From a virus: a stretch of DNA of 64,000 nucleotides. The DNA lies in IMG/VR virus record IMGVR_UViG_3300023174_000090, positions 32,001-96,000 of that record; one strand, given 5' to 3'. Of the stretch, positions 4,301 through 23,607 are shown one piece after another. The position numbers were made by a program, and so were the translations under genes. The notes beneath the pieces are model-generated. The model was not told the origin of the DNA. It saw only the letters and a list, made by a program, of their open reading frames with translations, and made no database searches. Position 1 is the stretch's first letter, and each line of letters opens with the position of its first letter.

Positions 4301-5310
4301 TTTCGATAAGTCCTATAAATGGAAATAATACTGCTTCTGGATATTATTCAAATGTAAATGGTGGTTATGGTAATAATGTACTTGGAGATTATTCAAGCAT
4401 AGGTGGCGGTATTTGTAATAATGCGTCTGGATATGTTTCGACAATTTCTGGTGGTAGAAGTAATACTGCTTCTGGATGCAAATCAACAGTAAGTGGTGGT
4501 TATTGTAATAGTTCTTGTGGATATAGTTCAACAGTTTCTGGTGGTTGTTGTAATACTGCTTTTGGATATGCTTCTAATGTTTCTGGTGGTATATCTAATA
4601 CTGCTTCTAACTATAATTCAAATGTTTCTGGTGGTAGAAGTAATACTGCTTCTGGATGTATATCAACAGTAAGTGGTGGTTGTGGTAATAGTTCTTGCGG
4701 ATATAGTTCAACAGTTTCCGGTGGTTGTTTCAATACTGCTTCTGGATGTGCTTCGAATGTTTCGGGTGGTATAGATAATACTGCTTGTGGCGATTATTCA
4801 AACGTTACTGGGGGTCGTTTCAATACGGTTTCTGGGGCGTATTCACACGTTGCTGGAGGTCGTGATAATATTGCTTCTGGAGATTATTCTGCGATATTGG
4901 GTGGTAGCTGTAATGATACCAACAATAAATCTAATACTTTTACTTTAGGTTCTAGTATAACAGCATCACAACCAAATTATACATACGTAAACAATTTATC
5001 TTCACAGAATAATATTAATGCTACTGTTATAAGCTCTATGGGTGGAAATTCAAATCAATGGAATTCTGCTTACTCAAACCAAACAAATTTTCTTCCATTG
5101 AGTGGTGGAATAATATCAGCAAACTCTTCTACAAACGCATTAACCGTTGTTGGTAATATATCTGCAACACAAAATTATTTTTCTGGAAGCAATAAATCAG
5201 TATTTACACCACAAACAAATACAGTCGGTATTAGTGCAATAAGTAATATTGTTGCTGTATCGGTTTTACCCGCAACACCAAATCCTTCAACACTATATAT
5301 TATTATATAA
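1321..5310 (+). CDS. long tail fibre / adhesin-like protein with YadA-head-like 15-aa repeats
   Basis: Two blocks of NTASGxxSxVxGGxx repeats, VGINTxxPNKxLTVxGEISA fibre motifs, MASKKISQLP N-terminus typical of phage fibres, late promoter motif upstream. Confidence 0.75.
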   Translation: MASKKISQLPLNTSSLPTSAVIITNIGGVTYQSPLSALVDPSPYKFSNTNSNAIIPKLGNNTSSGYYSNVSGGSYNIASGNCSNVNGGSFNTACKGFSNVAGGYCNTASGYYSNVAGGMNNTASGDYSSVSNGLENISSANYSNIVGGVLNTASAYASNIAGGWGNNASNDYSNVAGGRSNTASACYSNVAGGYINTASGCYSNVAGGRNNTASNYISNVAGGGYNTASGYYSNITGGYGNTASGYSSTIAGGFCNTASGRYSSILGGRNNNTNNQCNTFILGSNITANAQDTTYVNNLFATNNIVIQGSLSAAGGATFADTVFTTTSALSVVNLGVGPALYVYQASGPYDVASFVDGDGIEVLHVGNANFGQTGKIGINQSFPNKELTVTGEISATGIIYALSGNSSSWNSVYNSVLSNSANNASINYVNSNYLPLTGGTIIGEVNVLSGLNAGYGNLTLEINENSVSVYGPLSSNNTIYDSVGNSTEWNSVYTTVYNTSADWDSTYTNQTNYLPLSGGTITGDVTILSGLEVGYGNLTLEINENSVSVYVPLSSNNAIYDSVGNSNQWNSVYTSVLNTSASNASINYVNSNYLPLTGGTITGPVEINASEVDNVLKLKGKYGGYLDIVLTDESFTAGYPAPVGSIGSSGEGFSVKYGVGDTQWGKVVYSTNFDEGDEATIKNLKLEKLKDGNNNFVLDTTGGFNVYNTANSNKAIEIVDNQLLYNVSNEVVLDFTDKFYIKKNTRIDADVTIFGNLTSTGTQTFANTIFSTTSSLSVYHVGTGPALWVGNYGTGDIASFYDLDKNIEILHVGGNDGIFPNVGVKTSYPNKDFTVNGEISASGDIWTSGRIISDIIETGSGSITLFVSSGLVGINTELPNKSLTVNGEISASGDIWTSGRIISDIIETGSGSITLFVSSGLVGINTELPNKSLTVNGEISASGIIYALSGNSSNWNSVYSSWETASATSIVSYNDTRFSKLSSQAYKLTYPRLSISPINGNNTASGYYSNVNGGYGNNVLGDYSSIGGGICNNASGYVSTISGGRSNTASGCKSTVSGGYCNSSCGYSSTVSGGCCNTAFGYASNVSGGISNTASNYNSNVSGGRSNTASGCISTVSGGCGNSSCGYSSTVSGGCFNTASGCASNVSGGIDNTACGDYSNVTGGRFNTVSGAYSHVAGGRDNIASGDYSAILGGSCNDTNNKSNTFTLGSSITASQPNYTYVNNLSSQNNINATVISSMGGNSNQWNSAYSNQTNFLPLSGGIISANSSTNALTVVGNISATQNYFSGSNKSVFTPQTNTVGISAISNIVAVSVLPATPNPSTLYIII
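1501..2130 (+). repeat. 14 x 45-bp coding tandem repeat (NTASGYYSNVAGGxx)
   Basis: Units start at 1501, 1546, 1591 and so on. Confidence 0.9.
2551..3130 (+). repeat. 240-bp (80-aa) coding repeat, about 2.4 copies
   Basis: aattctgtttata at 2551, 2791, 3031; GYGNLTLEINENSVSVY and NASINYVNSNYLPLTGGTI each occur twice. Confidence 0.85.
3821..4151 (+). repeat. near-perfect 150-bp tandem duplication (2 copies plus a partial third)
   Basis: 3821-3970 and 3971-4120 differ at one synonymous site that I could see (tcaggaagt vs tcagggagt). Confidence 0.92.
4327..4911 (+). repeat. 13 x 45-bp coding tandem repeat with 180-bp higher-order period
   Basis: NTASGC(K/I)STVSGGxxNSSCGYSSTVSGGC recurs 180 bp apart. 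Confidence 0.85.
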
Positions 5311-5312
5311 AT

Positions 5313-5555
5313 ATGATTCTTAATAATATTCAAAATGGTTATATAGGAAATAAAGAAATTTCTAGAATTTATCTTGGAAATAATTTAATTTTTCCAGCCT
5401 TAAGTGGATTTTGGCAATTCACCGAAATAAATTCTACTATTACTGCATTCTCTGTTACCACAGTTCCTTCTGGTACAATAGATATTGATTGGGGAGATGA
5501 AAACGTAAGTACTATAAATTCTGGACAAACGATAAATAAAACATATACCATTTAA
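5313..5555 (+). CDS. small virion-associated protein with PKD-like motif
   Basis: YIGNKEISRIYLGNNLIF N-terminus typical of fibre-associated proteins; IDIDWGD PKD-like motif. Confidence 0.6.
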   Translation: MILNNIQNGYIGNKEISRIYLGNNLIFPALSGFWQFTEINSTITAFSVTTVPSGTIDIDWGDENVSTINSGQTINKTYTI

Positions 5556-7300: not shown

Positions 7301-8119
7301 TTAGCTAATATAACCAAAACGTTTTTGATAGTTATAATAAGTTTTATCAATCCAATTACAAATATCTTTACCTAAAACTTCCTTATAATCCGTATTTAAG
7401 GGAATCACTTCACTTCTAATAGTGTGAAGATCACTAGTAAGACCATATACAGAATCATCTTCTTTAATGGACTGCTCAACATTTTTAAAATCATGTTGAA
7501 ATGACTCTAGTCCAAGATAATTGTAAATTTTATTAAGTTCTTGTTGAGGATTATTTGTTAAATCTTCTGCTCTGACATATAAAACATTTTTATTAATGCC
7601 CTCTAGAAAACATTGCTCTAAACGCTCCAGTGCAAGTCCCACTGGTGGCGATGCAAACCAAGAATCCACTCTTTTTGCTGTGTTTGTACCAGACATTTCC
7701 GCATGATTTTGAATTGATTGATGGTTTTCTTGGTTTTTACGATAAATTTTTTCCATGGATGAAATAATACTTTTTAAGTTTCTTACCATGCATATCATTT
7801 TTGGTTTATATGGCATAAATGCCTCAAACCATTTATAATGAATAGTACCGCCTCTTGTTTTTATGCAAATATTAGATTTTTCTGAATATGAACTTGCATA
7901 TCCTTCTAAACCACCCCAACAAAATCCTCTCCATGCATTTATTGCTAAATTCTTATTAATAGCCTTAACTTCTGGAGAATTTGTAAAATTCATTCTAGCT
8001 CCATAGAGATATTCAAGAACTGGATCAGTAGGAGTTGCTGTTATTGTTGGATTTTGATTAAGAATACATTGAAGAAGCGTTGACATGCTTCTAGGCATTG
8101 AAGAATTAAAAAATATCAT
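7301..8119 (-). CDS. sulfotransferase family protein
   Basis: 5'-PSB-like loop SMPRSMSTLL, 3'-PB-like MVRNLKSIISS, VRAEDL..P...L.KIY.YLG. Confidence 0.8.
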   Translation of the reverse strand: MIFFNSSMPRSMSTLLQCILNQNPTITATPTDPVLEYLYGARMNFTNSPEVKAINKNLAINAWRGFCWGGLEGYASSYSEKSNICIKTRGGTIHYKWFEAFMPYKPKMICMVRNLKSIISSMEKIYRKNQENHQSIQNHAEMSGTNTAKRVDSWFASPPVGLALERLEQCFLEGINKNVLYVRAEDLTNNPQQELNKIYNYLGLESFQHDFKNVEQSIKEDDSVYGLTSDLHTIRSEVIPLNTDYKEVLGKDICNWIDKTYYNYQKRFGYIS

Positions 8120-8122
8120 ACA

Positions 8123-9052
8123 TTAAAACACTATAGTAGGATTCATATTAAAAAGCAACTCATTTTTTGAACCTAAAATTGATTCTATAAACCTATTTTT
8201 GTCAAATAGTTTATTAATATCTTTATACGGACATTCATGCAGTCTACCACCTGTCCAATCATCAGATTCTAAGTACGAATCTATTCTATGGCGAAATACT
8301 TCTTGTTTATCTACTACAATATTTGTATGAATTTCATGTCCAAATACTTTTGGAGAGTTTGAAATCCATCCAACGGTAGCATTTTTGTTTAAAGCTGCTG
8401 CTGCATGTTGAGCAAATGAATCTATACATAAAAATTTGTCTGATAATGCAATATAACAGAACAAATTTCTAAAATTATCTGTTACTGGAATGGTATTTTT
8501 AATATTTTGTTGATCTTCTCTCTTAATATGAAGTATTTTATCAAATTTATCTTTAATAGAATCAACAATTTCTGCGGTAAATGATATTGGAAGATCTCTG
8601 GACCAAGAATATGGTATTTTTTGATTTTCAGCACCTCCTGAAGATTGAATTGTGAGTATTGGACCTTGTTTATTTAAAATATTTTGAACAAACATCAACT
8701 CTCTTTCGGTTAGAAAGAGTTCTGGTTTAATAGAAATACATGGAATATTGAATATATCACACCAAATTTCTGCTAAATGTTTTTTTCTATATAAAAGATC
8801 TCCAGAATGATACGGTTCCATTCTGAATATTTTAGAATCTTTGTTTTTTATATAATCATCATAAAAATAAGAAATATTTCCAAATTTATATACCCTAAAA
8901 ACATTAGGATTATGTAAAAATACTTCTGGATAAGAAGTTACAACAATTAATTCATGTTCTGGATATGCAGATTTTATCGATTTTACAACTGATGTTCCTA
9001 CAATTGATTTTCCACAACCACCGTCAATATGATAAATTGCATATTTTTCCAT
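8123..9052 (-). CDS. GT9-like (heptosyltransferase-type, GT-B) glycosyltransferase
   Basis: N-terminal GGCGKSI...IKSAYP...VF.HNPNV and C-terminal FLCIDSFAQHAAAALN match the GT9 pattern. Confidence 0.75.
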   Translation of the reverse strand: MEKYAIYHIDGGCGKSIVGTSVVKSIKSAYPEHELIVVTSYPEVFLHNPNVFRVYKFGNISYFYDDYIKNKDSKIFRMEPYHSGDLLYRKKHLAEIWCDIFNIPCISIKPELFLTERELMFVQNILNKQGPILTIQSSGGAENQKIPYSWSRDLPISFTAEIVDSIKDKFDKILHIKREDQQNIKNTIPVTDNFRNLFCYIALSDKFLCIDSFAQHAAAALNKNATVGWISNSPKVFGHEIHTNIVVDKQEVFRHRIDSYLESDDWTGGRLHECPYKDINKLFDKNRFIESILGSKNELLFNMNPTIVF

Positions 9053-9533: not shown

Positions 9534-10083
9534 TTACTGCCAGTATAGCATCTACAATTGCATTTTCAAGCAATTCTTTTGGAATTTTCATAGAACCCTC
9601 TTGTACTATTTTGTTCAAATCTTCCATGTTTTTGACTATTTTTCTTTTAAAATCTATGCATTCTATCATTTCATGTTTAGAAAGATTTGAATATGTTGGA
9701 CTTTCTCTTAAATTAAAAGCTTCCATTAAAGGTTCCGCAGCTAAAGATATGATTGAAGCAATTTTTTTATACAATCTATCTAATGGAGATGTATATACAC
9801 GGTTTTCTTCTATTAAACTACTTGCAACATTTAAAAAATAACTCATAAGAGCGGATTTTTCCGATTGAATAGCAGTTCTATTTAAAAATTCTGCACTTTT
9901 TATATGAACTTTTCCATATGGATTGTGAGGACACCCAGATCCCACCGATTCAGAACCACAATATATGCATTTTCTATCAATATTCATATGCACATGGGTT
10001 TCTGTGGGGGAATATGGACACCCCCTACCAAAACAAGCAGCTCCGCAATATATACATTCAGAATTCATAACTGTATTTATCAC
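9511..10083 (-). CDS. hypothetical protein with two Cys/His metal-binding repeats
   Basis: CIYCG..CFGRGCPYSP..THVH and CIYCG...VGSGCPHNP..KVH; start may be 10068. Confidence 0.65.
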   Translation of the reverse strand: MINTVMNSECIYCGAACFGRGCPYSPTETHVHMNIDRKCIYCGSESVGSGCPHNPYGKVHIKSAEFLNRTAIQSEKSALMSYFLNVASSLIEENRVYTSPLDRLYKKIASIISLAAEPLMEAFNLRESPTYSNLSKHEMIECIDFKRKIVKNMEDLNKIVQEGSMKIPKELLENAIVDAILAVNAGKIKN

Positions 10084-10498
10084 TTCTATTCAAAAATTCT
10101 TTCGGAGGACTTCCAATTCGTACGTTTATAATGCCGTTATAGTAATCGTCTCGAAGTAAAACATCACGTTCTATCTGTTCTTTAATCTCAAAATATGCTA
10201 ATTCCCATTTGGAATGGCATGTTTTTATAATTTTAAACGTAAAATTTTCCTTACCATGTTTTTGTATATCTTGATTCAATTTTTCGGATGAACTTGTGTA
10301 CGATTTCCAATCAGATTCTACAAAATCAATTCGTTTTCTTTTTTTACCCTTCAGTGGTTTTCTTGTTAATTTAGATTTACATTGTTTTTTGCCAATATAT
10401 TTTTTATTTTCAATGTTATTTGTAATTTCGTAAATTATTCCAAATGTATTTTCATTTAAAATTACATTTTCAGTTAAAATCCAATGACCCGTATCCAT
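10058..10498 (-). CDS. GIY-YIG endonuclease
   Basis: FGIIYEITN....KKYIGKK followed by WKSYTSSS and YYNG. Confidence 0.85.
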   Translation of the reverse strand: MDTGHWILTENVILNENTFGIIYEITNNIENKKYIGKKQCKSKLTRKPLKGKKRKRIDFVESDWKSYTSSSEKLNQDIQKHGKENFTFKIIKTCHSKWELAYFEIKEQIERDVLLRDDYYNGIINVRIGSPPKEFLNRSDKYSYEF

Positions 10499-12601: not shown

Positions 12602-13226
12602 AAAAACAAAAGATGAAGATTTTGACAATCTTAAATACTCAGCCGAAGAATCCGAATTATTGGGAATACCATTTAAAAATTTAGATACAGAAAATGAAGA
12701 CACCGAAGACAATAATGAAAATATTGATGACGATGAAATTGTTTCGGAGGATTCTGTGGATGAGTTTGTAGAACACAAAATAGATTACGATAAAAAACCT
12801 AAAAATAAAAAGAAAGCAGATAAGGAAAAATTTTATGTAGATCCAAAAGAATTTGATTCTAAAATATTAGAATATTATGAAACAGGAGTATTATCAAATG
12901 AATTAGCGGAAATGGTTAGTAAAATAGCACATAAATTAAGTTATGCTTCTAATTTTATAAATTATTCATTCAGAGATGATATGATAGGAGATGGAATTAT
13001 TAGAATGTTAAAAGCTCTCATGTCAAAAAAATACAATCACAGCAAGGGAACCAATCCATTTTCATATTTCACACGAATAGCATTCAATGCATTTCGTAAT
13101 AGAATTAAAAAAGAAAAACACATGTATGAAACTCATGAAAAATATCAAAATGAATTCTTGATGTTTTCCGAGGGATATAATAATATGATCAAGAAAAATA
13201 ATAAAAATATACAAAAATACGAATGA
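12576..13226 (+). CDS. gp55: late-transcription sigma factor gp55, with acidic N-terminal extension
   Basis: NFINYSFRDDMIGDG and NPFSYFTRIAFNAF.NRIKKEK are gp55 signatures; lies next to gp47. Confidence 0.9.
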   Translation: MNTSKKRYRKTKDEDFDNLKYSAEESELLGIPFKNLDTENEDTEDNNENIDDDEIVSEDSVDEFVEHKIDYDKKPKNKKKADKEKFYVDPKEFDSKILEYYETGVLSNELAEMVSKIAHKLSYASNFINYSFRDDMIGDGIIRMLKALMSKKYNHSKGTNPFSYFTRIAFNAFRNRIKKEKHMYETHEKYQNEFLMFSEGYNNMIKKNNKNIQKYE

Positions 13227-14272
13227 CAATTAAACAAGGTAAAATTGGAATTTTTTCAGATATTCACTTAGGATTGTGCCAAGACTCTAAAACATGGCAT
13301 GACATTTCATTGAATTTTGCAAAATGGGCGAGTGAAGAATTATATTCTAGGGGAATACAAACAATCATAATACCCGGAGATGTATTTCACAATAGAACTG
13401 AAATAGGAGTCGATACCCTATCTGTTTCTAAGAAATTTTTTGATTATTTCAAGAATTTTGAATTGATAATTTCCTCCGGAAATCATGATTGTTTTTTAAA
13501 ACAAGAAAGCTCTATCAATTCCATATCAATTTTAAATGGGTGGGAAAACATAACAGTTGTAGATGGAGACCCCTTGATATTAAAAAGAAATAAAAAAATA
13601 ATTTCAGTAATTCCGTGGGGAGTTGACATCAAAGATATTCCAAATACAGATATATGCTTTGGTCATTTTGAAATAAACACCTTTTATATGAATACATACA
13701 AGGTATGTGAGCATGGAATGGATTCCAAAAACATATTAGAGAAGGCTCCTATCGTATTTTCCGGACACTTTCATGGAAAAGAGCACAGAAGATACGATAA
13801 GGGAGAAATTATATATGTTGGAAGTCCACATCAACATAATTTCGGAGACGAAAATCAGCAGAGAGGGATATATGTGTATGATATAGATACAAATGATTTA
13901 GAATTTATTGAAAATACAGTATCTCCTAAACATATTAAAATATTTTTGAATAAAATTCAAAAAGAAGAGCAAAGTGTCGAATTTTTACAAAAAAACGTTC
14001 CGGACAATCTAATATGTTTCATAGTTAATACTGAAATATCAGAAAGTGATCTGGAATCTTTAATTTCTAAGATCAAAAGCTTAAACCCGAAAACATTTAG
14101 GCTTGATTACGAATCTAAATCGGAAAAATTAATTGAAAATTCGGATAAACATGATTATAATATGGTAAACATAGAACAAAATATTGCAGATTTTGTAGGA
14201 TCTACTAATTTTACACACAAAGATAGCGTTGTAAAGTATTTAACAGATTTATACAATCAAATTAGAAAGTAA
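13223..14272 (+). CDS. gp47: recombination endonuclease subunit gp47 (Mre11/SbcD-like)
   Basis: SDIHLG, GDVFH, GNHD, GHFE, SGHFH metallophosphoesterase motifs. Confidence 0.92.
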   Translation: MTIKQGKIGIFSDIHLGLCQDSKTWHDISLNFAKWASEELYSRGIQTIIIPGDVFHNRTEIGVDTLSVSKKFFDYFKNFELIISSGNHDCFLKQESSINSISILNGWENITVVDGDPLILKRNKKIISVIPWGVDIKDIPNTDICFGHFEINTFYMNTYKVCEHGMDSKNILEKAPIVFSGHFHGKEHRRYDKGEIIYVGSPHQHNFGDENQQRGIYVYDIDTNDLEFIENTVSPKHIKIFLNKIQKEEQSVEFLQKNVPDNLICFIVNTEISESDLESLISKIKSLNPKTFRLDYESKSEKLIENSDKHDYNMVNIEQNIADFVGSTNFTHKDSVVKYLTDLYNQIRK

Positions 14273-14275
14273 TTT

Positions 14276-15031
14276 ATGAAAGAACACATAGGAATTGGAA
14301 TATTGGATATATATGATCAAGAAGATTTGGAATCTTGTTATTCATCGATACCGGAAGAGTATAGAGATAATGTTTTAATCGCTTCGGCAACCAACAACTC
14401 GATTGCTTCCAATATAGCACATAAAAAATTTAACGAAGTTTCCATGGCAACTCTTAGAAATTGGATAATTTCAAAATTCAGAATAGACGGATTAAAATAT
14501 ATTTTTATTATTAGTTCGAATCAAATTATAGATGATCCGAAAATATTCGAAAAGACAATTAAACTCGGAGAAACCTTTGGTACATGGTTTATATTGGGAG
14601 ATGGAAAGAATTCACTACCAATGGAAGATGAATCCACCGGAAATACTATTTATGCTACTCCAGAAATGAATAGTGACTTCATGTTTATTCTCTCTGGAAT
14701 AGTTTCAAATACCGGATACTTCGATGAAAGATTTTACAACACTAAAGATTTAGATGTTTTGGATTATATAATGAAATTAAGAAAAAAGGGAATATATCCA
14801 CCCGCAAATTATAATTTAAGCATTGGAAATGGAGTCAAAGGACTTAATAAGCCAATCAAGAAAATAAAATATGCAGATGTGAATAATCCCGATAGAAGCG
14901 TTGGTATTTCGTATGGATATTTTAAACATATTCATAATTATTTGCCGGGAGTTAATGACCCTTCCGGAATAACACAAGAAAAATTGATTGAATTTATGCA
15001 AGAACTTCAAAAAAATTATGCAAAAAGATAA
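14276..15031 (+). CDS. GT2-like protein lacking the DxD motif (probably inactive paralog)
   Basis: Aligns by eye with the next two GTs (IGIG.., GYFDERFYN, K.G.YP) but has IFIISSN where they have FL.EDD. Confidence 0.6.
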   Translation: MKEHIGIGILDIYDQEDLESCYSSIPEEYRDNVLIASATNNSIASNIAHKKFNEVSMATLRNWIISKFRIDGLKYIFIISSNQIIDDPKIFEKTIKLGETFGTWFILGDGKNSLPMEDESTGNTIYATPEMNSDFMFILSGIVSNTGYFDERFYNTKDLDVLDYIMKLRKKGIYPPANYNLSIGNGVKGLNKPIKKIKYADVNNPDRSVGISYGYFKHIHNYLPGVNDPSGITQEKLIEFMQELQKNYAKR

Positions 15032-15875
15032 AATAGGACTCGGACTGATAACATGTGACCGATATAACTTTTTGGAAAAAAGTTTACTATCAGTATTTAA
15101 AGCCACTAGTGGACTAGATGATAATTTTTTCAAATTCATATTGATAGATGATACGTCATCTCCTATACCGGAAGGCTCGTATGATTTTGCAAATGAGTTT
15201 AACCTTGAAAAGATTCACACTACAGGAGAGGAAGGGGTGGGAATAGCCAAGAACAAGGCACTAAAAGCATTAATAGATGCAGATTGTGAACATATTTTCT
15301 TAATGGAAGATGATGTTGAAATGCTAGATGCTTCTATTTTTGAAAAATACATCAACGCTTCTAGAATAACTGGAATCAAACATCTCAATTTTGCTCTTCA
15401 TGGCAATCATAACAGAGATTTTAATAGTAACCCAACACCAAGAAGAACTATAAATTATCCAGATAATGAAACACGAATAGTTTTATATCCAAATATTCTA
15501 GGAGCATTTAGCTATTATCATATAGATGTTTTAAATGAAGTGGGATTGATAGATGAACAGTTTTACAATGCCTTGGAACACGTAGATCATACATATCAAA
15601 TAATAAAGGCAGGATATCACCCATATTTTAGATGGTTTGCTGATATAGAAGGATCGGAAAAATATTTAAAAGACATTGTACCCGATCATATGAACAGTAA
15701 AATACGATCTGAACAGGATTTTGTTGAAAATTTTATGAAAAATCATGACAGATTTGTATCCAAAAACAATTTTGCAGTTGTATACGGAAAGGGTCCAATA
15801 GAAAACACTTATACCGAAGAAGAAGTTGTCAAAAATTTACAAGAAATATGGAAAAAACACCACTACAAGGAATAG
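15018..15875 (+). CDS. GT2 family glycosyltransferase
   Basis: IGLGLITCDR, GVGIAKNKAL, HIFLMEDD, GLIDEQFYNALEHVD; ATG at 15018 preferred over 14988. Confidence 0.82.
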   Translation: MQKDKIGLGLITCDRYNFLEKSLLSVFKATSGLDDNFFKFILIDDTSSPIPEGSYDFANEFNLEKIHTTGEEGVGIAKNKALKALIDADCEHIFLMEDDVEMLDASIFEKYINASRITGIKHLNFALHGNHNRDFNSNPTPRRTINYPDNETRIVLYPNILGAFSYYHIDVLNEVGLIDEQFYNALEHVDHTYQIIKAGYHPYFRWFADIEGSEKYLKDIVPDHMNSKIRSEQDFVENFMKNHDRFVSKNNFAVVYGKGPIENTYTEEEVVKNLQEIWKKHHYKE

Positions 15876-17329
15876 GAGTGGCGATTATTACATACAATCG
15901 ACCAGAATATTATAAAAAAGTATTAAAAACCATACCCAGACATAGGATAAAATCCCTATTAGTGGTAAATGACGGAGAAAACTCGTATGTTGAGGAAACA
16001 GATGCAGATTTTGTTATAAAACATAACGCAAAATTGGGTGTTGCGGTATCAAAAAATCATGCACTTCATTTTTTAATAGAAAAAATGAAGTGCGAACATT
16101 TGTTTTTGATTGAAGATGACATATTGGTATTGGACGAAAATGTATTTGACGAGTATATCAAGGCCGCAAATTCTACCGGAATACATCATTTATGTTATGA
16201 AAAGGTAAATGGCAATGAAAAAACTTTAAAATTTACACAAGAGCAACCTGATGGAGTAAAAATTGGTTTTTATCATAATCCCCAAGGAGCATTTATGTAT
16301 ATGAATGCAAATTTAATTAAAAAACTTGGATACTTTGATGAAAATTATATAAATGCATTTGAACATGTGGATTTTGAATATAATTTGGTAAAAAATGGAG
16401 TAGCCCCATCATTTTGGTATTTCCCCGATTTACTGGAAAGCAATAAATTTTTAAAAGAAATTGAAGGAAGCTCTGAAAACTCTTCAATAACAAATAAAGA
16501 AGGATATAAAGAAAATGTAGAAAAATCTGCTCATTATTTTACAAAAAAATGGGGACATTTTACAAATGCTATAAAAGATGAAGGACAAATTCCATTATTA
16601 CATTCTTTAATACACCTACAGGCAAATTATTCCAGAAAAAAACTCATAAACAAAGACAAACGATTGGCAATTATAATTCCATATAGAGATAGGAGAACTT
16701 CTTTGGAGAATTTATTGCCAAATTTAAGAAAATATGTAGAAAAACAAGTAAAGCATTTTGATATCTACGTTGTAGAACAAAATGACACTAAATTATTTAA
16801 TAAAGGATTACTAAACAACATAGGATATATTTTAAATTCCAATTATGACTATTACTGTTTTCATGACGTTGATTTAATCCCAGAAATGTCGGATTATTCA
16901 TATCCAACAAGACCAATACACCTTAGTTCACATTGTAGTCAATTTAATTATATTAATATACCAGATAAAATAATGGGAGGCGTTATTCTCTTTACAAAAG
17001 AACATTTTAAATTGACTAATGGATATCCAAATGACTATATAGGCTGGGGAGGAGAAGATAACAACTTGTATGCTAGATGTGAAAAGGTGAATATTCCCCC
17101 TCTAAAACATTCTTTCGGAAAATATTTCTCTATACCACATGAGCACAGATTATTCAACCCCGAAGAAAAGAAAAAGCATTTGGAGAATGGAAAAAAAACA
17201 GATGATTTTATCGCTGGAATTACAAATTTACAAGATAATGGATTATCTACCATAAATTTAAATGATTTTGAAATTCAAAAAGCAAATTTAAATGATTTTT
17301 TTCACATAAAAATAAAACCCAAAATTTGA
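15848..17329 (+). CDS. two-domain glycosyltransferase: GT2 fused to GT7 (beta-1,4-galactosyltransferase-like)
   Basis: N-half IITYNR...LFLIEDD; C-half AIIIPYRDR, FNKGLLNNIG, FHDVDL, NGYPNDYIGWGGEDN (GT7 WGGEDD motif). Confidence 0.88.
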   Translation: MEKTPLQGIGVAIITYNRPEYYKKVLKTIPRHRIKSLLVVNDGENSYVEETDADFVIKHNAKLGVAVSKNHALHFLIEKMKCEHLFLIEDDILVLDENVFDEYIKAANSTGIHHLCYEKVNGNEKTLKFTQEQPDGVKIGFYHNPQGAFMYMNANLIKKLGYFDENYINAFEHVDFEYNLVKNGVAPSFWYFPDLLESNKFLKEIEGSSENSSITNKEGYKENVEKSAHYFTKKWGHFTNAIKDEGQIPLLHSLIHLQANYSRKKLINKDKRLAIIIPYRDRRTSLENLLPNLRKYVEKQVKHFDIYVVEQNDTKLFNKGLLNNIGYILNSNYDYYCFHDVDLIPEMSDYSYPTRPIHLSSHCSQFNYINIPDKIMGGVILFTKEHFKLTNGYPNDYIGWGGEDNNLYARCEKVNIPPLKHSFGKYFSIPHEHRLFNPEEKKKHLENGKKTDDFIAGITNLQDNGLSTINLNDFEIQKANLNDFFHIKIKPKI

Positions 17330-17345
17330 AAAATACAATAAAACA

Positions 17346-17353
17346 TATAAATA
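17346..17353 (+). promoter_or_regulatory. exact T4 late promoter TATAAATA upstream of the distal GT genes
   Basis: TATAAATA ends 10 nt before ATG 17364. Confidence 0.5.
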
Positions 17354-17363
17354 ATTTATTAAA

Positions 17364-17906
17364 ATGAGTAAAAGACTTTCTATATTAACGCCTACATTAA
17401 ACAGTAGAAAACAATTGTTTCAGAATTTAGCAAAAGTATTAAAGGCCCAATCAAACTCCCAAGTGGAAATGCTGGCACTTTGCGATGATGGAGAACAATC
17501 TATAGGCAAGAAAAGAAATGAGCTTGTAGAAGCAGCCAAGGGAGATTATGTCGTGTTTATAGACGATGATGACATGATTTCTCCGTTTTATGTATTTGGA
17601 ATTTTAGAGGCAATAAAAAACAATCCGGACTGCTGTGGAATCGAAGGTATAATAACAGAAAGACGATCCGGTCCCAAAAAATTTGTTCATTCGTTAAAAT
17701 ATACAGATTGGTTTGAAAAAGATGATGTTTATTACAGATGTCCAAACCATTTAAACCCGATTAAAAGAGAGATAGCAATGGATGTAAAATTTCCAGAATT
17801 ATACTTCGGAGAAGATAAAGACTTTTCACACAAACTTATTGGAAAATTAAAAACTGAAGTTTTTATAAATGGTCCAATTTATTATTACTATCCATCAATT
17901 AGCTAA
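17364..17906 (+). CDS. GT2 family glycosyltransferase
   Basis: LSILTPT, SIGKKRN, YVVFIDDDD, GED. Confidence 0.85.
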   Translation: MSKRLSILTPTLNSRKQLFQNLAKVLKAQSNSQVEMLALCDDGEQSIGKKRNELVEAAKGDYVVFIDDDDMISPFYVFGILEAIKNNPDCCGIEGIITERRSGPKKFVHSLKYTDWFEKDDVYYRCPNHLNPIKREIAMDVKFPELYFGEDKDFSHKLIGKLKTEVFINGPIYYYYPSIS

Positions 17907-17908
17907 AC

Positions 17909-19168
17909 ATGAAAAACAATCTAAAATTATTAATTAAATTTCCGACAAGAGGAAGACCCGAAAAATTTTTCAATGTATTGAACAAATATATTGAAATGGC
18001 GCATGAACACAATTCAATTGCATTTTTAATATCTATGGATGCAGATGATAAATCCATGAATAATGATATTATTAAAAATAAATTAAATGATATTCAAAAA
18101 ACAGTTAAATTGGTATATTTTTATGGAAATAGTAAGACTAAAATAGAAGCTATCAATGCTGACATGGGAAACGTATCCGGATGGGACATAGTTTTACTCG
18201 CATCTGATGATATGATTCCAATAGTACATGGATATGATTGTATTATAAGAGATCATATGAAAGAATTTTTTAGAAATACTGATGGGTGTTTATGGTATTC
18301 GGATGGAGGTCAAAATAATATCTGTACGTTGAGTATTTTAGGAAAAAAATATTATGATCGATTTGAATATATTTACAATCCAGAATATAAAAGCTTGTGG
18401 TGCGATAATGAGCATACAGATGTAATGACACAATTGGGAAAGGTTTATAAATCCGATCAAGTTATTATAGAACATCAACATCCCGTTTATCAAAAAACAA
18501 ATTATGATGAATTATATGTTAGAAATGAATCATATTTTAACATTGATAGAGAAATTTATGAAAAAAGAAAAGTTAAAAATTTTGATTTGAATTTAAACTA
18601 TCCACTTTTATCAATATTAACGCCATCAATTACAAGCAGAATGGACTCGCATTTAAAAAAATTGATTGAAAAATTGAAAAAACAAATTGGAAATAGTAAT
18701 GTCGAACATTTAATATTAACGGATAATAGAAAAAGAAGCATAGGAGAAAAAAGACAGTCATTGTTAGATGTTTCTAATGGAAAATATGTAACATTTATTG
18801 ATGATGATGATGATATTTCAGATGATTACATAGAATGTGTATTGAATGCAATTGAAGAAAATGCAGACGTTATAACATTTAAACAAAAATGTTTAATAAA
18901 TAACAATCCACCATCTATTATAAATTTTTCTCTACAAAATAAAGAAAACGAACCCTATCTTCCGGGAATGCTTATAAACAGAATGCCATTTCATGTGTGT
19001 ATATGGAAGTCTAAAATTGCTAAAAAATATAAATTTCCAAGTACAAGTTACTCAGAAGATTGGTTTTGGGTGGAACAGTTATTGAAAGAAGTTAAAACCG
19101 AATTTCATATAGATAAAGCGATACATAGCTATATCTACGATGAAAATGTAACAACAACTCCTTTATGA
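17909..19168 (+). CDS. tandem two-domain GT-A glycosyltransferase
   Basis: N-domain FPTRGRP...LASDDM...WCDNE; C-domain LSILTPS...SIGEKRQ...FIDDDDD...SED, paralogous to 17364..17906. Confidence 0.82.
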   Translation: MKNNLKLLIKFPTRGRPEKFFNVLNKYIEMAHEHNSIAFLISMDADDKSMNNDIIKNKLNDIQKTVKLVYFYGNSKTKIEAINADMGNVSGWDIVLLASDDMIPIVHGYDCIIRDHMKEFFRNTDGCLWYSDGGQNNICTLSILGKKYYDRFEYIYNPEYKSLWCDNEHTDVMTQLGKVYKSDQVIIEHQHPVYQKTNYDELYVRNESYFNIDREIYEKRKVKNFDLNLNYPLLSILTPSITSRMDSHLKKLIEKLKKQIGNSNVEHLILTDNRKRSIGEKRQSLLDVSNGKYVTFIDDDDDISDDYIECVLNAIEENADVITFKQKCLINNNPPSIINFSLQNKENEPYLPGMLINRMPFHVCIWKSKIAKKYKFPSTSYSEDWFWVEQLLKEVKTEFHIDKAIHSYIYDENVTTTPL

Positions 19169-19842
19169 AATCTTGTATTATTAATTTTGCAAATGGTTAT
19201 TGGTATGAAAATGGAAAGAATAGATTATTAAACTCTATCAATGCTTTTAAAAAAGAAACATCAACATATGATTTTTTATCATTTAAAGATTATAGTGATA
19301 TCGGTTCTCCGCATCATAAAGATTTGAATTATGCTTTTAAATTTTATAGTTTCAAAAAGGCATTGGAAATGGGATATCAAAATATCCTATGGCTGGACTG
19401 TTCCATGTATGCAATAAAAAATATTGATGAATGTTTTGAGCACATTAACAACTGTGGATATGCAGTTACATGGTCAGAATATAATAATGCACAATGGACA
19501 AATGATAGAACACTAGAAGCATTTAATATGACCAGAGATGAGGCGGAAAAAACTAGACATATCTATAGCGGATGCTTTGGAATTAGTACAAATTATACAA
19601 AATTTCAAGAATTTTATACAATGTATGAAACCCATCTTCCATATTTAAATGGGGCTTGGAATAACAACAATAAAACAGAATCTTTAGATGAAAGATGTAA
19701 GGGACATAGACATGATCAAACCATATTAAGTTTAATATTAAATAAATTAGAAATGGACGACACTAATGGAACTTTTTTTGAATATTGGAATTCTTCGGAA
19801 AATTATAAACAAAAAACTTGCTTTATAGCGAGAGGTATGTGA
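19165..19842 (+). CDS. nucleotide-diphospho-sugar transferase-like protein (GT-A)
   Basis: YAFK, ILWLDCS, GHRHDQTILS motifs. Confidence 0.7.
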   Translation: MKSCIINFANGYWYENGKNRLLNSINAFKKETSTYDFLSFKDYSDIGSPHHKDLNYAFKFYSFKKALEMGYQNILWLDCSMYAIKNIDECFEHINNCGYAVTWSEYNNAQWTNDRTLEAFNMTRDEAEKTRHIYSGCFGISTNYTKFQEFYTMYETHLPYLNGAWNNNNKTESLDERCKGHRHDQTILSLILNKLEMDDTNGTFFEYWNSSENYKQKTCFIARGM

Positions 19843-19859
19843 TAATAAATATCTAAATT

Positions 19860-20474
19860 ATGTATAGTCAAAACAACGAAGATAAAATTTTCCTAGAATA
19901 TTTTAAAGATAAACCCGAAGGAACACTCCTAGAAATAGGAGCATATGATACCACAACATTTTCAAACTCAAGAGCCTTGATAGAAAAAAATTGGACTGCG
20001 TATTTGGTGGATGCATCTCCTTTTTGTATAACCAAATTATTTGAATCGTATAAGCAAAATAAAAAGGTAAACTTAATACAATCTCTTATCATGACAGAGA
20101 AAAGCGAATCCTTACATTGTTTTTATGACTGTCCATTTTCAGCAGTTTCATCTATTTCAAAAGAGCATACTAAAAAATATCATAAAAATGACCCTGACAT
20201 AGAAAATAAAATTAAAGAAATTTACTTAAAAAGTTTAACTTTGAATGAATTGTTGAGTTTTGTTTTACAACAACAAAATGGTTTAGATTTTCTATCAATA
20301 GACGTCGAGGGATTTTCGGCAGATTTGGCAGTATCTATGGATTTGGACATTGTGAAACCCGATTGCATCTGCATTGAACATGATTCCAAGCAAAATATTT
20401 TAATTGATAAATTTGGTGCTTTTTATAACGTAGTTCATAAAAACGGAGAAAATATTATTTTTACTAAAAAATAA
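19860..20474 (+). CDS. FkbM-family SAM methyltransferase
   Basis: YSQNNED, LEIGAYD...SNS, DFLSIDVEG, ICIEH. Confidence 0.85.
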   Translation: MYSQNNEDKIFLEYFKDKPEGTLLEIGAYDTTTFSNSRALIEKNWTAYLVDASPFCITKLFESYKQNKKVNLIQSLIMTEKSESLHCFYDCPFSAVSSISKEHTKKYHKNDPDIENKIKEIYLKSLTLNELLSFVLQQQNGLDFLSIDVEGFSADLAVSMDLDIVKPDCICIEHDSKQNILIDKFGAFYNVVHKNGENIIFTKK

Positions 20475-22273
20475 TGAAAGATATTTTATTTGAAAAAATA
20501 AAAATCAAAAATTTTCTATCAATAAAGGATGAAGTTGTTTTTGATATCAAGTCTGGATTAAATCTCATAACAGGAGAAAACAGAGATTCTGAAAGTAGAA
20601 ACGGAGTTGGAAAGAGTTCTCTTATAGAATCGCTCTACTGGTGTTTATTCGGAAACACCATTAGAGACATTAAAAATGATAAAATAATACACAATCAATC
20701 TGATAAGAATTGTTGCGTTACCTTAGATTTTTCTATTAAAAATTTGGATATTAATAAAAAATATTCAATAAAAAGAACATTAGAACCTTCTAAAATTCAA
20801 ATTTTAGAAGATGAAAAGGACATAACACTTTCAACTATTCCTAAGAATGATGAATTTATAAAGCAACTTTTAGGAGCCAATGAAGAAGTGTTTCAAAATG
20901 CTGTTATAATGACAGCAAACAACACTATTCCATTCATGGCACAGAAGAAGATAGACAAAAGAAAGTTTATCGAGGGAATATTGAACATGGAAGTATTTGG
21001 GGAAATGTTATTAAAGGTTCGTTCGGATTTTAATGACTTAAAAAAGAAAAATGATATTACTTCCACTATTTTAAACGAAAAGAATAAAAATATAATTCTT
21101 TATAATAATCAAATTCAAAAAAATAAAGAATTAAATAATACAAAAATACAAAATTTAAATCTAAAAATAGAAGAAAACAATAAAAAAATTAAAATATATT
21201 CTGATATTGATTCTATCAACGATAGAATAACAAAAAATAAAGAATCTATAGATAAATTATTCGAAACAAATAATAAATCAGATGCGGGAATTGATAAAAT
21301 TGAGGATATTTTATCCAAAAAAAATAAAAATAAAATAGAAATAGATTTTGAAATAAAGGAATTAAATTCTAAATTAAAATCTATAGACAAAACACCAGAT
21401 GTTTGCCCTACTTGTAAACGAAAATACGACAAACAAGAAAATTCTCCGTGTATAGATGTCGATTCGATTAAAAATGAATTAGATTCTAAAAAAATAATAT
21501 CAAAACAATATGAAAGTGAATTGTTTGAATTGAATGATAAAAAAAGAAAACTAAAAGAAATTATAACATCAAATTTGAATAAGATTAACGCATTGAAAGA
21601 TGAAATTAATAAATTAAACTTAAATTTGAGTGACGTTAAAAATTTGGAGGATAAAAACGAGGAAATCTTAGTTCAAATTAAAGAAATTGAGAACATAGAA
21701 GATCCTTTATTGGAAAATATTCAAAAAACGGAAGAAGAAATACAAAATATATCCGAAGAATTGGAACAAATTCAAAAAAATTTACTGATTTTGGATAATT
21801 GCAAGTTTGTTCTCTCGGAAGAAGGGGTAAAATCATTTATAGTTAAAAAAATGATTTCAGTATTAAATTCTCAGTTGAATTTTTATCTTAAAACATTAAA
21901 TGCACCATGTATTTGCACGTTTGATGAATCTTTCGAAGAAACCATAACAAACAATCAAGGAAAAGAGTGTTCATATTTCAATTTCAGTGGTGGGGAGAGA
22001 AAAAGAATCGATATTGCAGTTCTTTTTATGTTCCAAGATATCTTAAAATTACAAACAGGAATCCATTTTAATCTCAGTATGTATGATGAGCTATTAGACT
22101 CTGCTTTAGATTCTAGCGGAACATCAAAAATAATGGAAATTTTGAAAGAAAGAAGTAATAATTCTTCAGAATCTATATACATCGTATCTCATAATAAATC
22201 CACGCAGGTAAATGGATTTGATAATATCATTATGTTAGAAAAGAAAGATGGCAAAACAACTATAGCTTCTTGA
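20474..22273 (+). CDS. gp46: recombination ATPase gp46 (Rad50/SbcC-like)
   Basis: KNFLS, NGVGKS, coiled coil with CPTC zinc hook, FSGGE, DE, SH. Confidence 0.93.
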   Translation: MKDILFEKIKIKNFLSIKDEVVFDIKSGLNLITGENRDSESRNGVGKSSLIESLYWCLFGNTIRDIKNDKIIHNQSDKNCCVTLDFSIKNLDINKKYSIKRTLEPSKIQILEDEKDITLSTIPKNDEFIKQLLGANEEVFQNAVIMTANNTIPFMAQKKIDKRKFIEGILNMEVFGEMLLKVRSDFNDLKKKNDITSTILNEKNKNIILYNNQIQKNKELNNTKIQNLNLKIEENNKKIKIYSDIDSINDRITKNKESIDKLFETNNKSDAGIDKIEDILSKKNKNKIEIDFEIKELNSKLKSIDKTPDVCPTCKRKYDKQENSPCIDVDSIKNELDSKKIISKQYESELFELNDKKRKLKEIITSNLNKINALKDEINKLNLNLSDVKNLEDKNEEILVQIKEIENIEDPLLENIQKTEEEIQNISEELEQIQKNLLILDNCKFVLSEEGVKSFIVKKMISVLNSQLNFYLKTLNAPCICTFDESFEETITNNQGKECSYFNFSGGERKRIDIAVLFMFQDILKLQTGIHFNLSMYDELLDSALDSSGTSKIMEILKERSNNSSESIYIVSHNKSTQVNGFDNIIMLEKKDGKTTIAS

Positions 22274-22305: not shown

Positions 22306-23607
22306 ATGGTAAAACTGAAGTCTGAAAATATTCAAAATTCATCTGGAATTGTTTTTGAATATGAAACACATCAATTAGGAATTCCCAATCCCCCATCAAA
22401 CATGCCTGTTGGCATGCCCAAATACTCATATGTGGGGGTAAAACCCGTACAAGTCCCCACAATACCTCCAGTAGAGATGCCAGAAGCATCTCTTCCTAGA
22501 GCAATAAATTATTATGCCGACTATGGTGGATGTGGGTTCTGGCGAATGATATGGCCAGAAATGTGTTTAAACGCCTATCAGAAGGCAGTTATTTCCGGTT
22601 TGACCTGCATGGTATTAGATTTGAGATTTTATCAGAATATTAAAACTATTAGAATGCAAAGACAGGCAACACCTGTTCAAAATGCATTTATCAAACAATT
22701 ACACGGCGCAAAATCAAAATATAATTACAGATTGCTATATGAGGTCGATGATATTGTCTTTAAAGACGATATTCCTGACTATAACAGATGTAAAGAGGCA
22801 TTTTGTGATGAAAATATTGTAAAAAGCATAACCGAAATCATGTCCATGATGGATGAAATCACTGTTACATGTGATTTCATGAAACAATATTATATTAATA
22901 AGACTGGAAATAAAAAAATAACAGTTATTCCCAACTATGCTCCGAAATTTTGGCTTGATAGGTTCTATGATAAGAAAAGACTCATGGAATCTTTCGAGAA
23001 AAACAAAAAACAACCGAGAATCTTGTATGCAGGATCTGGAACACATATCGACGTTGCAAATAAAACGGGAATGAAAGATGACTTTCATCATGTTGTTGAA
23101 GAAATCATCAAAGCCAGAAAAAAATTTAAATTTGTATGGAAGGGATGCTATCCACTAGCAATAAAACCATTCATTCAAAATGGAGAAATGGAATACCTAG
23201 ATTGGTCTGCTCTCATGGATTTACCAGAAGCAATTTTCAATGCAAATTGTAACGCAACTTTCGCTCCTCTTATGAACAATACTTTTAATAAATCAAAAAG
23301 TGACATTAAAATTATCGAGTCTGGAGCGTTTGGAATGCCCGGAACGTATCAAGACCTATGTACATACGCAGAAGCCGAATTTAAATTTGAAAGTGGAAAG
23401 GATTTGATATCTCAACTCGAATATATAACATCGGATTATGACAGATATGCAAAATTATCCGAAAATTCCAGAAACTTTACAGAAACGAGATGGTTGGAAA
23501 ATCATTTAGACAAGTACATGGGATTGTATACTACAGAATGGGGTTCCGCTGAAAGAAATAGACTCTATCCGGATATAATTAGACTCAATCCTGATCAAAA
23601 GATTTGA
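22306..23607 (+). CDS. GT-B fold glycosyltransferase (GT4-like)
   Basis: GCGFWRM..P, YEVDD, ITVT, VIPN, ILYAGS.TH, APL..N.FN.SKSDIKIIE; lies between gp46 and DNA polymerase. Confidence 0.78.
   Translation: MVKLKSENIQNSSGIVFEYETHQLGIPNPPSNMPVGMPKYSYVGVKPVQVPTIPPVEMPEASLPRAINYYADYGGCGFWRMIWPEMCLNAYQKAVISGLTCMVLDLRFYQNIKTIRMQRQATPVQNAFIKQLHGAKSKYNYRLLYEVDDIVFKDDIPDYNRCKEAFCDENIVKSITEIMSMMDEITVTCDFMKQYYINKTGNKKITVIPNYAPKFWLDRFYDKKRLMESFEKNKKQPRILYAGSGTHIDVANKTGMKDDFHHVVEEIIKARKKFKFVWKGCYPLAIKPFIQNGEMEYLDWSALMDLPEAIFNANCNATFAPLMNNTFNKSKSDIKIIESGAFGMPGTYQDLCTYAEAEFKFESGKDLISQLEYITSDYDRYAKLSENSRNFTETRWLENHLDKYMGLYTTEWGSAERNRLYPDIIRLNPDQKI

Follow-up and report, generated by a model that had tools for sequence, protein, structure and literature searches.

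The viral DNA analysed here, a stretch of 64 kb (hereafter the window), covers bases 32001-96000 of IMGVR_UViG_3300023174_000090, a 111.6-kb IMG/VR record of an uncultured phage from a lake water metagenome (CheckV completeness 53%). Between gp47 and gp46, which encode the two subunits of a Mre11/Rad50-like nuclease, seven co-oriented open reading frames (ORFs, o1-o7) on the + strand occupy positions 14276-20474. The island represents one allele of a hypervariable glycan-assembly cassette that the whole clade shares. We consider the chances about even that the island is a soluble, cytoplasmic protein O-glycosylation pathway, which would decorate phage proteins, most likely those of the virion, with a strain-specific and partly methylated oligosaccharide.

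Position and variability of the gp47-gp46 cassette

The genes of the island, its two borders and the glycosyltransferase (GT) gene that follows gp46 are listed below.

13223-14272, + strand: gp47, SbcD/Mre11-like nuclease subunit; conserved left border (PF12850, 3e-7; phrog_100, 2e-55)
14276-15031, + strand: o1, GT-A-fold paralog of o2 and of the o3 N-domain without the canonical DXD motif (AlphaFold2 (AF2) model and Foldseek; ortholog alignment)
14988-15875, + strand: o2, GT2 glycosyltransferase (PF00535, 24.9 bits against a cut-off of 23.3; phrog_2456, 1e-21)
15848-17329, + strand: o3, two-domain enzyme with a GT2-like N-domain (residues 1 to ~250, EDD motif) and a GT7 C-domain (residues 268-432) (phrog_2456, 9e-25; Pfam GT7)
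17364-17906, + strand: o4, compact GT2 enzyme with a DDDD motif, paralogous to the C-domain of o5 (PF00535, 1.2e-8; phrog_14775, 9e-34)
17909-19168, + strand: o5, uncertain N-domain (residues 1 to ~225, SDD motif) and GT2 C-domain (residues 232-416, DDDDD motif) (PHROG, Pfam)
19165-19842, + strand: o6, predicted GT-A fold, phage-specific DUF1647-like family (AF2 model with a mean predicted local distance difference test (pLDDT) score of 95; Foldseek; 18 homologs)
19860-20474, + strand: o7, FkbM-family S-adenosylmethionine (SAM) methyltransferase (PF05050, 28.5 bits against a cut-off of 22.7; TIGR01444, 2e-4)
20474-22273, + strand: gp46, SbcC/Rad50-like subunit; conserved right border (AAA_23, 1e-15; SMC_N; phrog_77, 2e-94)
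22306-23607, + strand: GT4-like GT-B family glycosyltransferase of the clade core, directly after gp46 (phrog_7162, 1e-18)

The ORFs in 14276-20474 and the Pfam and PHROG calls at the borders agree with the original prediction, made from the window alone, that seven contiguous genes separate gp47 from gp46. The genes are tightly packed, with a 3-nt gap, overlaps, gaps of 34 and 17 nt, and a 1-nt overlap with gp46, and their G+C content (0.28-0.31) is the same as that of the surroundings. Cyanophage Syn1 has the same uvsW-gp55-gp47-gp46 string with a single ORF of 90 residues between the nuclease genes. Because Syn1 has just this short ORF at that place, the island has been inserted into an ancient stretch of conserved gene order.

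By its PHROG core genes, the phage is a deep-branching T4-like myovirus. The same genome encodes an uvsW-type helicase, the gp55 late sigma factor, gp47, gp46, gp43 polymerase, thymidylate synthase, UvsX, gp41, the large terminase and the tail sheath. The closest cultured phages reach at most ~28% identity in gp46 and ~31% in gp43, and gp43 is ~30% identical to those of cyanophages and pelagiphages. Megablast found nothing matching the island among 50,697 phage records, and the window contains no tRNA genes, hence no clue to the host.

Searching IMG/VR with gp47 yielded 18 related loci, 15 of which contain sequence downstream of gp47 and 11 of which extend far enough to show the island content. 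The order helicase-gp55-gp47 is kept in all 18 loci, and o1 is the next gene after gp47 in each of the 15. Across the 18 loci gp47 is 47-63% identical, and gp46 is 46-56% identical in the relatives. The slot in the 11 relatives holds 9-13 tightly packed genes on the + strand, and the island length ranges from 6.2 kb here, the shortest, to ~15.6 kb. Clustering of the 122 island proteins of these relatives together with the window's own yielded 73 clusters (gp47 included) and revealed two parts. The inner part is constant, with o1 present in 12/12 loci and o2 standing alone in 10/12 and fused in the others. The outer part is a mosaic of mostly singleton clusters, and o6 is found only in the window at the clustering threshold. 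The original prediction had proposed a look at how the block is conserved in related phages, and the comparison shows that the slot is kept, with o1 present in every locus with sequence there, o2 in most of them and the rest swapped. The o1 family is widespread in metagenomes, with at least 253 clusters at 90% identity and contigs of up to 216 kb.

The Pfam families of the 122 relatives' proteins are those of glycan assembly: GT2 (21), Methyltransf_24 (11), FkbM (10), GT7 (6), Epimerase (5), GT25 (5), O-methyltransferase (5), GT11 (4), CmcI-type (4), GDP-mannose dehydratase (3), GT6 (3), GT47 (3), GT1/4 (3) and GT10 (2). In a relative whose genome is an estimated 99% complete, for example, the island reads o1, GT2 plus methyltransferase, GT7C, GT11, short-chain dehydrogenase/reductase (SDR), GT6, FkbM, GT2 and methyltransferase. 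At positions 16521-17753 of another related locus (L018), a sugar C-methyltransferase (PF08484, 1e-44) adjoins a GDP-mannose 4,6-dehydratase (3e-130); some alleles therefore seem to provide for branched or C-methylated deoxy-sugars. A 5.6-kb contig binned as Saprospiraceae (CAYUZA010000177.1, L026) carries the helicase, gp55 and gp47 (44% identity) followed by o2-like GTs without o1. It is a phage contig, probably mis-binned, and comes from a more remote relative whose island begins with o2.

The GT gene directly after gp46 (hereafter the post-gp46 GT) falls outside the interval treated in the original prediction (14276-20474). Its product is 64-68% identical in four relatives (G001-G004), which makes it the best-conserved protein of the neighbourhood (gp47 and gp46, 46-52%). 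The gene lies directly downstream of gp46 in G002 and G003, the two for which the position of gp46 was available, and in a consistent position in G001 and G004. The family has 1349 representatives at 50% identity, whose members weakly match Glyco_transf_4 and Glyco_trans_1_4; a profile search of the PDB with this family returned nothing. We consider the post-gp46 GT a probable partner of the island. In some relatives the protein contains an intein (PF14528 and PF14890), giving forms of 800-824 residues (P0139-P0142), and a search for longer homologs returned such intein-bearing forms only.

Further genes of interest lie upstream in the window. A SegE-type GIY-YIG homing endonuclease gene (10058-10498, - strand; PF19835, 3.6e-29) is located just upstream of the helicase-gp55-gp47 operon. 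At 7301-9052 (- strand), a sulfotransferase gene (PF13469, 2e-10; PF00685, 6e-8) is followed by a gene for a 309-residue protein whose N-terminus faintly resembles heptosyltransferases (TIGR02201, 4e-3), and the pair is convergent with a gene for a repeat-rich, fibre-like protein of 1329 residues (1321-5310). The pair may represent a second, separate modification module.

Enzymes of the island and their solubility

The three proteins at the gp47 side are related to each other. o1 is a distant paralog of o2 and of the o3 N-domain. Its AF2 model (pLDDT 68) is confident in the N-terminal half only, and Foldseek matches the model to the GT-A enzymes GnT-I, POMGnT1 and B4GALNT1. The EDD motif of o2 and of the o3 N-domain is replaced by SNQ, SDQ or TDQ in 12/12 aligned o1 orthologs, which share a conserved E-D-D 35 residues downstream of the lost motif. 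The original prediction had called o1 catalytically dead. The loss of the canonical DXD in all 12 orthologs makes this plausible, and the second E-D-D leaves the label short of proof. The o1 family has no match in Pfam or NCBIfam and no tblastn match in cultured phages.

o2 retains the motif as invariant E107-D108-D109, and its true start is probably the ATG at 15018. In a profile search of the PDB, the o2 family gave weak N-terminal matches alone (GalT1, 8e-6; SunS, 4e-3), which are uninformative on the acceptor. The C-domain of o3 is a clear GT7 domain (PF13733, 1.4e-21, 76.9 bits; PF02709, 3.2e-17, 62.4 bits): it matches the animal enzymes beta4GalT7 and beta4GalT1 in the PDB (E 3e-25) and has the N- and C-regions of CAZy family GT7 (beta-1,4-Gal/GalNAc transferases), with the DVD and WGGED motifs read from the sequence. 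The nearest ESM Atlas clusters of o3 are 73-100% viral. Several viral-labelled clusters among these neighbours fuse GT7 to a lectin-like Laminin_G_3 domain, which could be a carbohydrate- or protein-binding module on phage galactosyltransferases. The o3 gene also contains a perfect hairpin with a 14-bp stem and a 5-nt loop (16061-16093, + strand), tied for the longest perfect hairpin of the window and absent from the o3 homologs of three related loci (L004, L010 and L020).

The outer genes encode more diverse enzymes. The GT2 assignment of the o5 C-domain is based on PF00535 (5.6e-6) and phrog_8858 (1e-35). For the o5 N-domain, the signs of a GT are phrog_14945 (annotated 'glycosyltransferase', 3.6e-13) and the SDD motif; there was no match in Pfam, NCBIfam or the PDB, and hhalign against the o2 family gave a probability of 0.6%. 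On a Cytophagaceae contig from a metagenome-assembled genome (MAG; L039, positions 3775-5334), the gene directly after an o2 homolog encodes a relative of the o5 N-domain (49% identity over 240 residues), and this domain therefore travels with o2-type GTs beyond the clade too. o6 belongs to a family of ~225 residues without a Pfam match, whose ESM Atlas neighbour clusters are 91-100% viral and linked to DUF1647. D78-x-S80 and R182-H183-D184 are invariant in the family. Because the AF2 model of o6 matches GT6 structures in Foldseek (BoGT6a, ABO transferases and alpha3GalT; TM-score ~0.6, E 3e-7), we assign it to the GT-A enzymes; the modelled architecture appears GT6-like and of the retaining type.

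The original prediction counted eight GT-A domains and a methyltransferase and proposed profile searches and structure prediction for each domain. These analyses support seven of the eight GT-A domains well and place the FkbM enzyme above its cut-off; the remaining domain, the o5 N-domain, is weak, with its PHROG label and SDD motif. The domain inventory thus supports the view that several enzymes encoded together build a glycan, accompanied by a methyltransferase of the glycan type, and the product may be a defined chain capped by the methylase.

All seven proteins appear soluble. The highest 19-residue Kyte-Doolittle mean in o1-o7 is 1.18, with no hydrophobic span. Among 141 proteins (the relatives' island proteins and gp47, and the window's own), only two reach 1.6, in each case in a charged, Rossmann-like strand that does not resemble a transmembrane segment. 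Pfam searches of the record and the four relatives, which include genomes 92% and 99% complete, found no priming transferase, flippase or polymerase/ligase (PF02397, PF00953, PF01943, PF04932). The 111.6-kb record also has no match to Epimerase (SDR) or NTP_transferase, and because it lacks SDR epimerases and NTP-transferases, this allele must draw on the nucleotide sugars of the host. The Pfam searches of the record and the hydropathy scan of the island proteins bear out the earlier statement that no nucleotide-sugar synthesis, flippase or membrane-anchored GT is visible.

Candidate acceptors of the glycan

From the gene content, the folds and families of the enzymes, their solubility, the pattern of conservation and variability, and the homology links described below, we infer an acceptor, an order of steps, the sugars and a role for the methyl group. 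The strictly conserved post-gp46 GT, o1 and o2, or some of these, would place the first sugar or sugars on Ser/Thr residues of a conserved phage protein, with host nucleotide sugars as donors. In this step o1 may act as a non-canonical enzyme or as a non-catalytic partner. The variable GT-A enzymes would then lengthen the chain, o4 and o6 by one linkage each and o3 and o5 by two, and one of the o3 linkages is probably of the beta-1,4-Gal/GalNAc type. The FkbM enzyme o7 would O-methylate a sugar. A constant acceptor-proximal part combined with a variable distal part fits a conserved, phage-encoded acceptor.

Homologs of the two constant elements occur together in bacterial flagellin glycosylation islands. 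A profile scan of 185,579 species genomes with o2 gave 24 loci with 27-54% identity, three of which are from isolates: Tatumella morbirosei, Pseudomonas fluorescens and P. arcuscaelestis. The loci of T. morbirosei and P. fluorescens are flagellin glycosylation islands, in which fliC is accompanied by one or two GTs of ~1000-1300 residues, FliA, a FabH-like gene and the o2 homolog, either by itself or as a fusion with a methyltransferase. In P. arcuscaelestis the two large GTs and the FabH-like gene recur, with no flagellin gene within the stretch fetched. In all three species the first large GT contains a domain homologous to the post-gp46 GT (21-24% identity over 227-342 residues, 50-70 bits in blastp), and the o2 homolog (35-37%) is located one or two genes from this protein. 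This domain is the sole match to the post-gp46 GT in each of the three isolate genomes, and two genomes with polysaccharide clusters that were tested gave no match.

The association extends to other Pseudomonas species. Of the 81 Pseudomonas species whose genomes were sampled, 54 have a match to the post-gp46 GT, at a single place in 49 of them, and every match among those listed lies inside a frame of 927-1885 residues. A flagellin gene is found within 10 kb of the match in 15 of the 20 regions fetched, often 300-450 nt away; the chance of a flagellin gene in a random 20-kb window of a 6-Mb genome is well under 1%. In P. syringae, the large genes fgt1 and fgt2 upstream of fliC encode flagellin GTs; rhamnose is attached to serine by Fgt1, and methylated sugars are part of the glycans (PMC3927599). 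Thus o2 and the post-gp46 GT, the clade-constant elements on either side of the variable genes, have neighbouring homologs in a system for which O-glycosylation of protein in the cytoplasm is proven. We tentatively propose, at chances somewhat below even, a more specific model in which the cassette and the post-gp46 GT are a captured flagellin-type (Fgt-like) O-glycosylation system, with conserved priming and inner-core enzymes acting on a conserved virion protein and an outer set that is swapped. A methyltransferase domain common to the GT-methyltransferase fusions of the phages and of Pseudomonas was considered as a further link and rejected, since the domains are not homologous by BLAST.

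Another link leads to mycobacteriophages. The N-domain of Che8 gp108 shares 33% identity with both o4 and the C-domain of o5 (93-94 bits; over 186 residues for o4); no island protein matches Che8 gp109 or gp110. Che8 virions are reported to be glycosylated by phage-encoded GTs, with gp110 reported essential for capsid glycosylation (Freeman et al. 2023, as cited in PMC12363180 and PMC11256854). Among the 581 cultured-phage records with an o2 homolog, 547 are mycobacteriophages.

The promoter analysis gave no usable signal for gene timing. Late-promoter-like xATAAATA motifs are found 8-10 nt upstream of the ATG start codons of o4 and o7, in the only two intergenic gaps of the island (17339-17353 and 19843-19859), as they are before structural genes. 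A scan for sigma-70-like promoters performed no better than chance (91 hits, 87 ± 10 in shuffled sequences), and a strong TTGAAA-17-TATAAT within the 3' end of gp47 is kept in the two closest relatives only.

Several observations weigh against virion glycosylation. The island genes are located in an early/middle replication-recombination operon, not among the late genes, and the xATAAATA motif is present in 0/15 intergenic gaps of the relatives' islands. A search of the window's structural proteins for Ser/Thr-rich tails or tracts, as marks of candidate acceptors, turned up no distinctive one. The gene reported essential in Che8, gp110, has no match in the island, and the whole flagellin link is carried by a low identity (22-28%) to one domain of a multidomain protein. 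In addition, at least 9 of the 24 bacterial o2-homolog loci are in Wzx/Wzy polysaccharide clusters, and because most of the bacterial homologs found sit in such clusters, the o2 family is not protein-specific.

The last point bears on a different acceptor, the host envelope. The soluble GTs may act at the cytoplasmic face on undecaprenyl-linked intermediates of the host's O-antigen, exopolysaccharide (EPS) or capsule, and the host would then export a methyl-capped glycan by means of its flippase or ABC transporter and its ligase. The altered surface might serve during infection in, for example, superinfection exclusion or the prevention of progeny re-adsorption. We judge this remodelling, and such a purpose for it, unlikely, with a share of the probability that is still appreciable because soluble O-antigen and EPS GTs work on undecaprenyl-linked acceptors and o2 homologs sit in Wzx/Wzy clusters. 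In at least nine MAG clusters of Bacteroidota and Ignavibacteriota, o2 homologs (35-46%) are accompanied by Wzy, Wzx, FkbM, GT2/GT4, UDP-GlcNAc 2-epimerase and Bac_transf, and the FkbM protein of one such cluster also matches the model of Vibrio cholerae RfbT. Placement in an early operon suits an early-acting function, hypervariability would track the diversity of host surfaces, and the GT clusters of pelagimyophages and cyanomyophages have been read in this way (PMC7029224, PMC12801897). However, strict conservation of o1, o2 and the post-gp46 GT (the last with 64-68% identity) as an inner part is unexpected if the acceptor varies by host, and the post-gp46 GT matches flagellin islands rather than the two polysaccharide-cluster genomes tested. 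No island protein reaches an NCBIfam equivalog cut-off for lipopolysaccharide (LPS) or EPS synthesis, and o3 and o6 have their closest kin in viral families. The Pfam searches of the five records and the scan of the 141 proteins for transmembrane segments found no Gtr-type or other membrane component, although the host could supply one. The original prediction had favoured a cytoplasmic acceptor, either virion proteins or DNA, over the host surface. The solubility of the enzymes agrees with this; the lack of membrane proteins is itself compatible with host-surface conversion, and of the two acceptors, DNA has become unlikely.

Hypermodification of DNA would place the oligosaccharide on a modified base of the genome as protection against restriction or CRISPR, as in T4, RB69/DLP3 and MT-TET-GT systems. 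The surrounding genes serve replication and recombination, early expression of the block is probable, and in T4 the gene next to gene 47 encodes the alpha-glucosyltransferase. Phage GTs related to those for LPS and teichoic acid can add mono- to trisaccharides to 5-hydroxymethylcytosine (5hmC) (bioRxiv 10.1101/2023.12.21.572611), which also counts for this acceptor. Yet the phage DNA-glycan routes described so far all start from a ThyA homolog (giving hydroxymethylcytosine (hmC), hydroxymethyluracil (hmU) or 5-hydroxycytosine (5hoC)) or from a C5-methylase with a TET-type dioxygenase (PMC13326640; bioRxiv 10.1101/2023.12.21.572611). Neither PF00303 (ThyA-type hydroxymethylase or 5-hydroxylase) nor PF00145 (C5 DNA methylase) was found in the record or in G001-G004, including the genomes 92% and 99% complete, and PF12851 (Tet_JBP) was not found in the same five records in a search without a positive control. 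The thymidylate synthase of the phage (phrog_85/phrog_10644), which lacks PF00303, is putatively of the ThyX type. The DNA arabinosyl- and glucosyltransferases of Straboviridae (RB69, DLP3, RL38J1) all match GT-B-type structures and are listed with a ThyA homolog, dCTPase and nucleotide kinases (PMC13326640), whereas the island is all GT-A. We therefore regard DNA as a highly improbable acceptor. A decidedly unlikely case, though less remote, is another cytoplasmic acceptor: a host protein such as flagellin, pilin or a surface protein before export, a non-virion phage protein, or a methylated oligosaccharide that is free or joined to a small molecule. In favour of this, the enzymes are soluble, their homologs point to the glycosylation of flagellin, a host-type protein, and no feature ties the enzymes specifically to virion components. 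On the other hand, a target encoded by the phage accounts more readily for a highly conserved core function of the whole clade.

Related systems and implications

Glycosylation of virion proteins by the island would have its nearest counterparts in actinobacteriophages. Che8 gp108-110, Corndog gp38 and Myrna (Freeman et al. 2023, as cited in PMC12363180 and PMC11256854) resemble the island in that soluble phage GTs are encoded outside the structural operon. The Che8 type consists of siphoviruses of actinobacteria, with three genes in Che8, whereas the present system belongs to an aquatic T4-like myovirus and comprises 7-13 genes and a core GT. In further contrast to that type, the cassette is hypervariable in a fixed gp47-gp46 slot, and its glycosylation of virions is a prediction.

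The T4-like core, the clusters of GT2, GT10, GT11 and GT25 genes, the epimerases and dehydratases, and the variation are shared with the cyanomyophages P-SSM2, S-SCSM1 and S-SCSM2R (PMC12801897) and with pelagimyophages (PMC7029224). The clusters of those phages lie in tail-fibre/host-recognition or other plastic regions, for example between VrlC and gp14 in the host-recognition cluster of pelagimyophages (PMC7029224), whereas the present island is in the replication-recombination module. The constant inner part (o1 and o2) and the core flanking GT also set it apart from them.

The flagellin islands of Pseudomonas and Tatumella have in common with the phage island a cytoplasmic, soluble and stepwise mode of glycosylation, there on Ser, with methylated sugars (PMC3927599), and GT-methyltransferase fusions occur in both. 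The bacterial enzymes are multidomain proteins of 1000-1900 residues, whereas the phage encodes no flagellin and its island is far richer in GT-A domains. T4, RB69/DLP3 and MT-TET-GT systems likewise have GTs in the neighbourhood of replication genes and attach up to three sugars; their precursor enzymes were not found in the five records. Modules for O-antigen or EPS synthesis and for seroconversion carry a priming transferase, Wzx, Wzy/WaaL or GtrA/B/C membrane proteins, none of which was found in these five phage records. A further likeness, by description only, is to the chlorovirus PBCV-1, in which soluble multidomain GT-A enzymes build a strain-specific capsid glycan in the cytoplasm and A064R combines two GT domains with a methyltransferase. 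Unlike the present phage, PBCV-1 is a virus of eukaryotic algae, and its capsid glycans are N-linked.

Our literature search found no description of a glycan-gene island between gp47 and gp46. The features that set the island apart are the fixed slot, the layout of a constant inner and a variable outer part, the all-soluble inventory and a core GT related to flagellin GTs. Glycosylation of virions by bacteriophages has been established experimentally in a few actinobacteriophages only, and the GT genes of aquatic T4-like phages have so far been assigned to changes of the host surface without a test. The layout found in this clade, with its fixed slot, constant inner part, swappable outer part, soluble enzymes and flagellin-GT-related core, makes the question of the target testable.

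If the model of a captured flagellin-type system is right, it would be the first such system in aquatic myoviruses of the Gram-negative type, and each lineage would carry its own methylated and partly fucosylated 'glycan serotype', the phage counterpart of the O-antigen diversity of bacteria. Should the particle be the target, lake phages would vary along a further, new axis, that of their glycans, which may bear on adsorption, stability, grazing and decay. The enzymes themselves (GT6, GT7, GT10, GT11-like, and O- and C-methyltransferases) would provide a compact set of soluble catalysts for building glycans.

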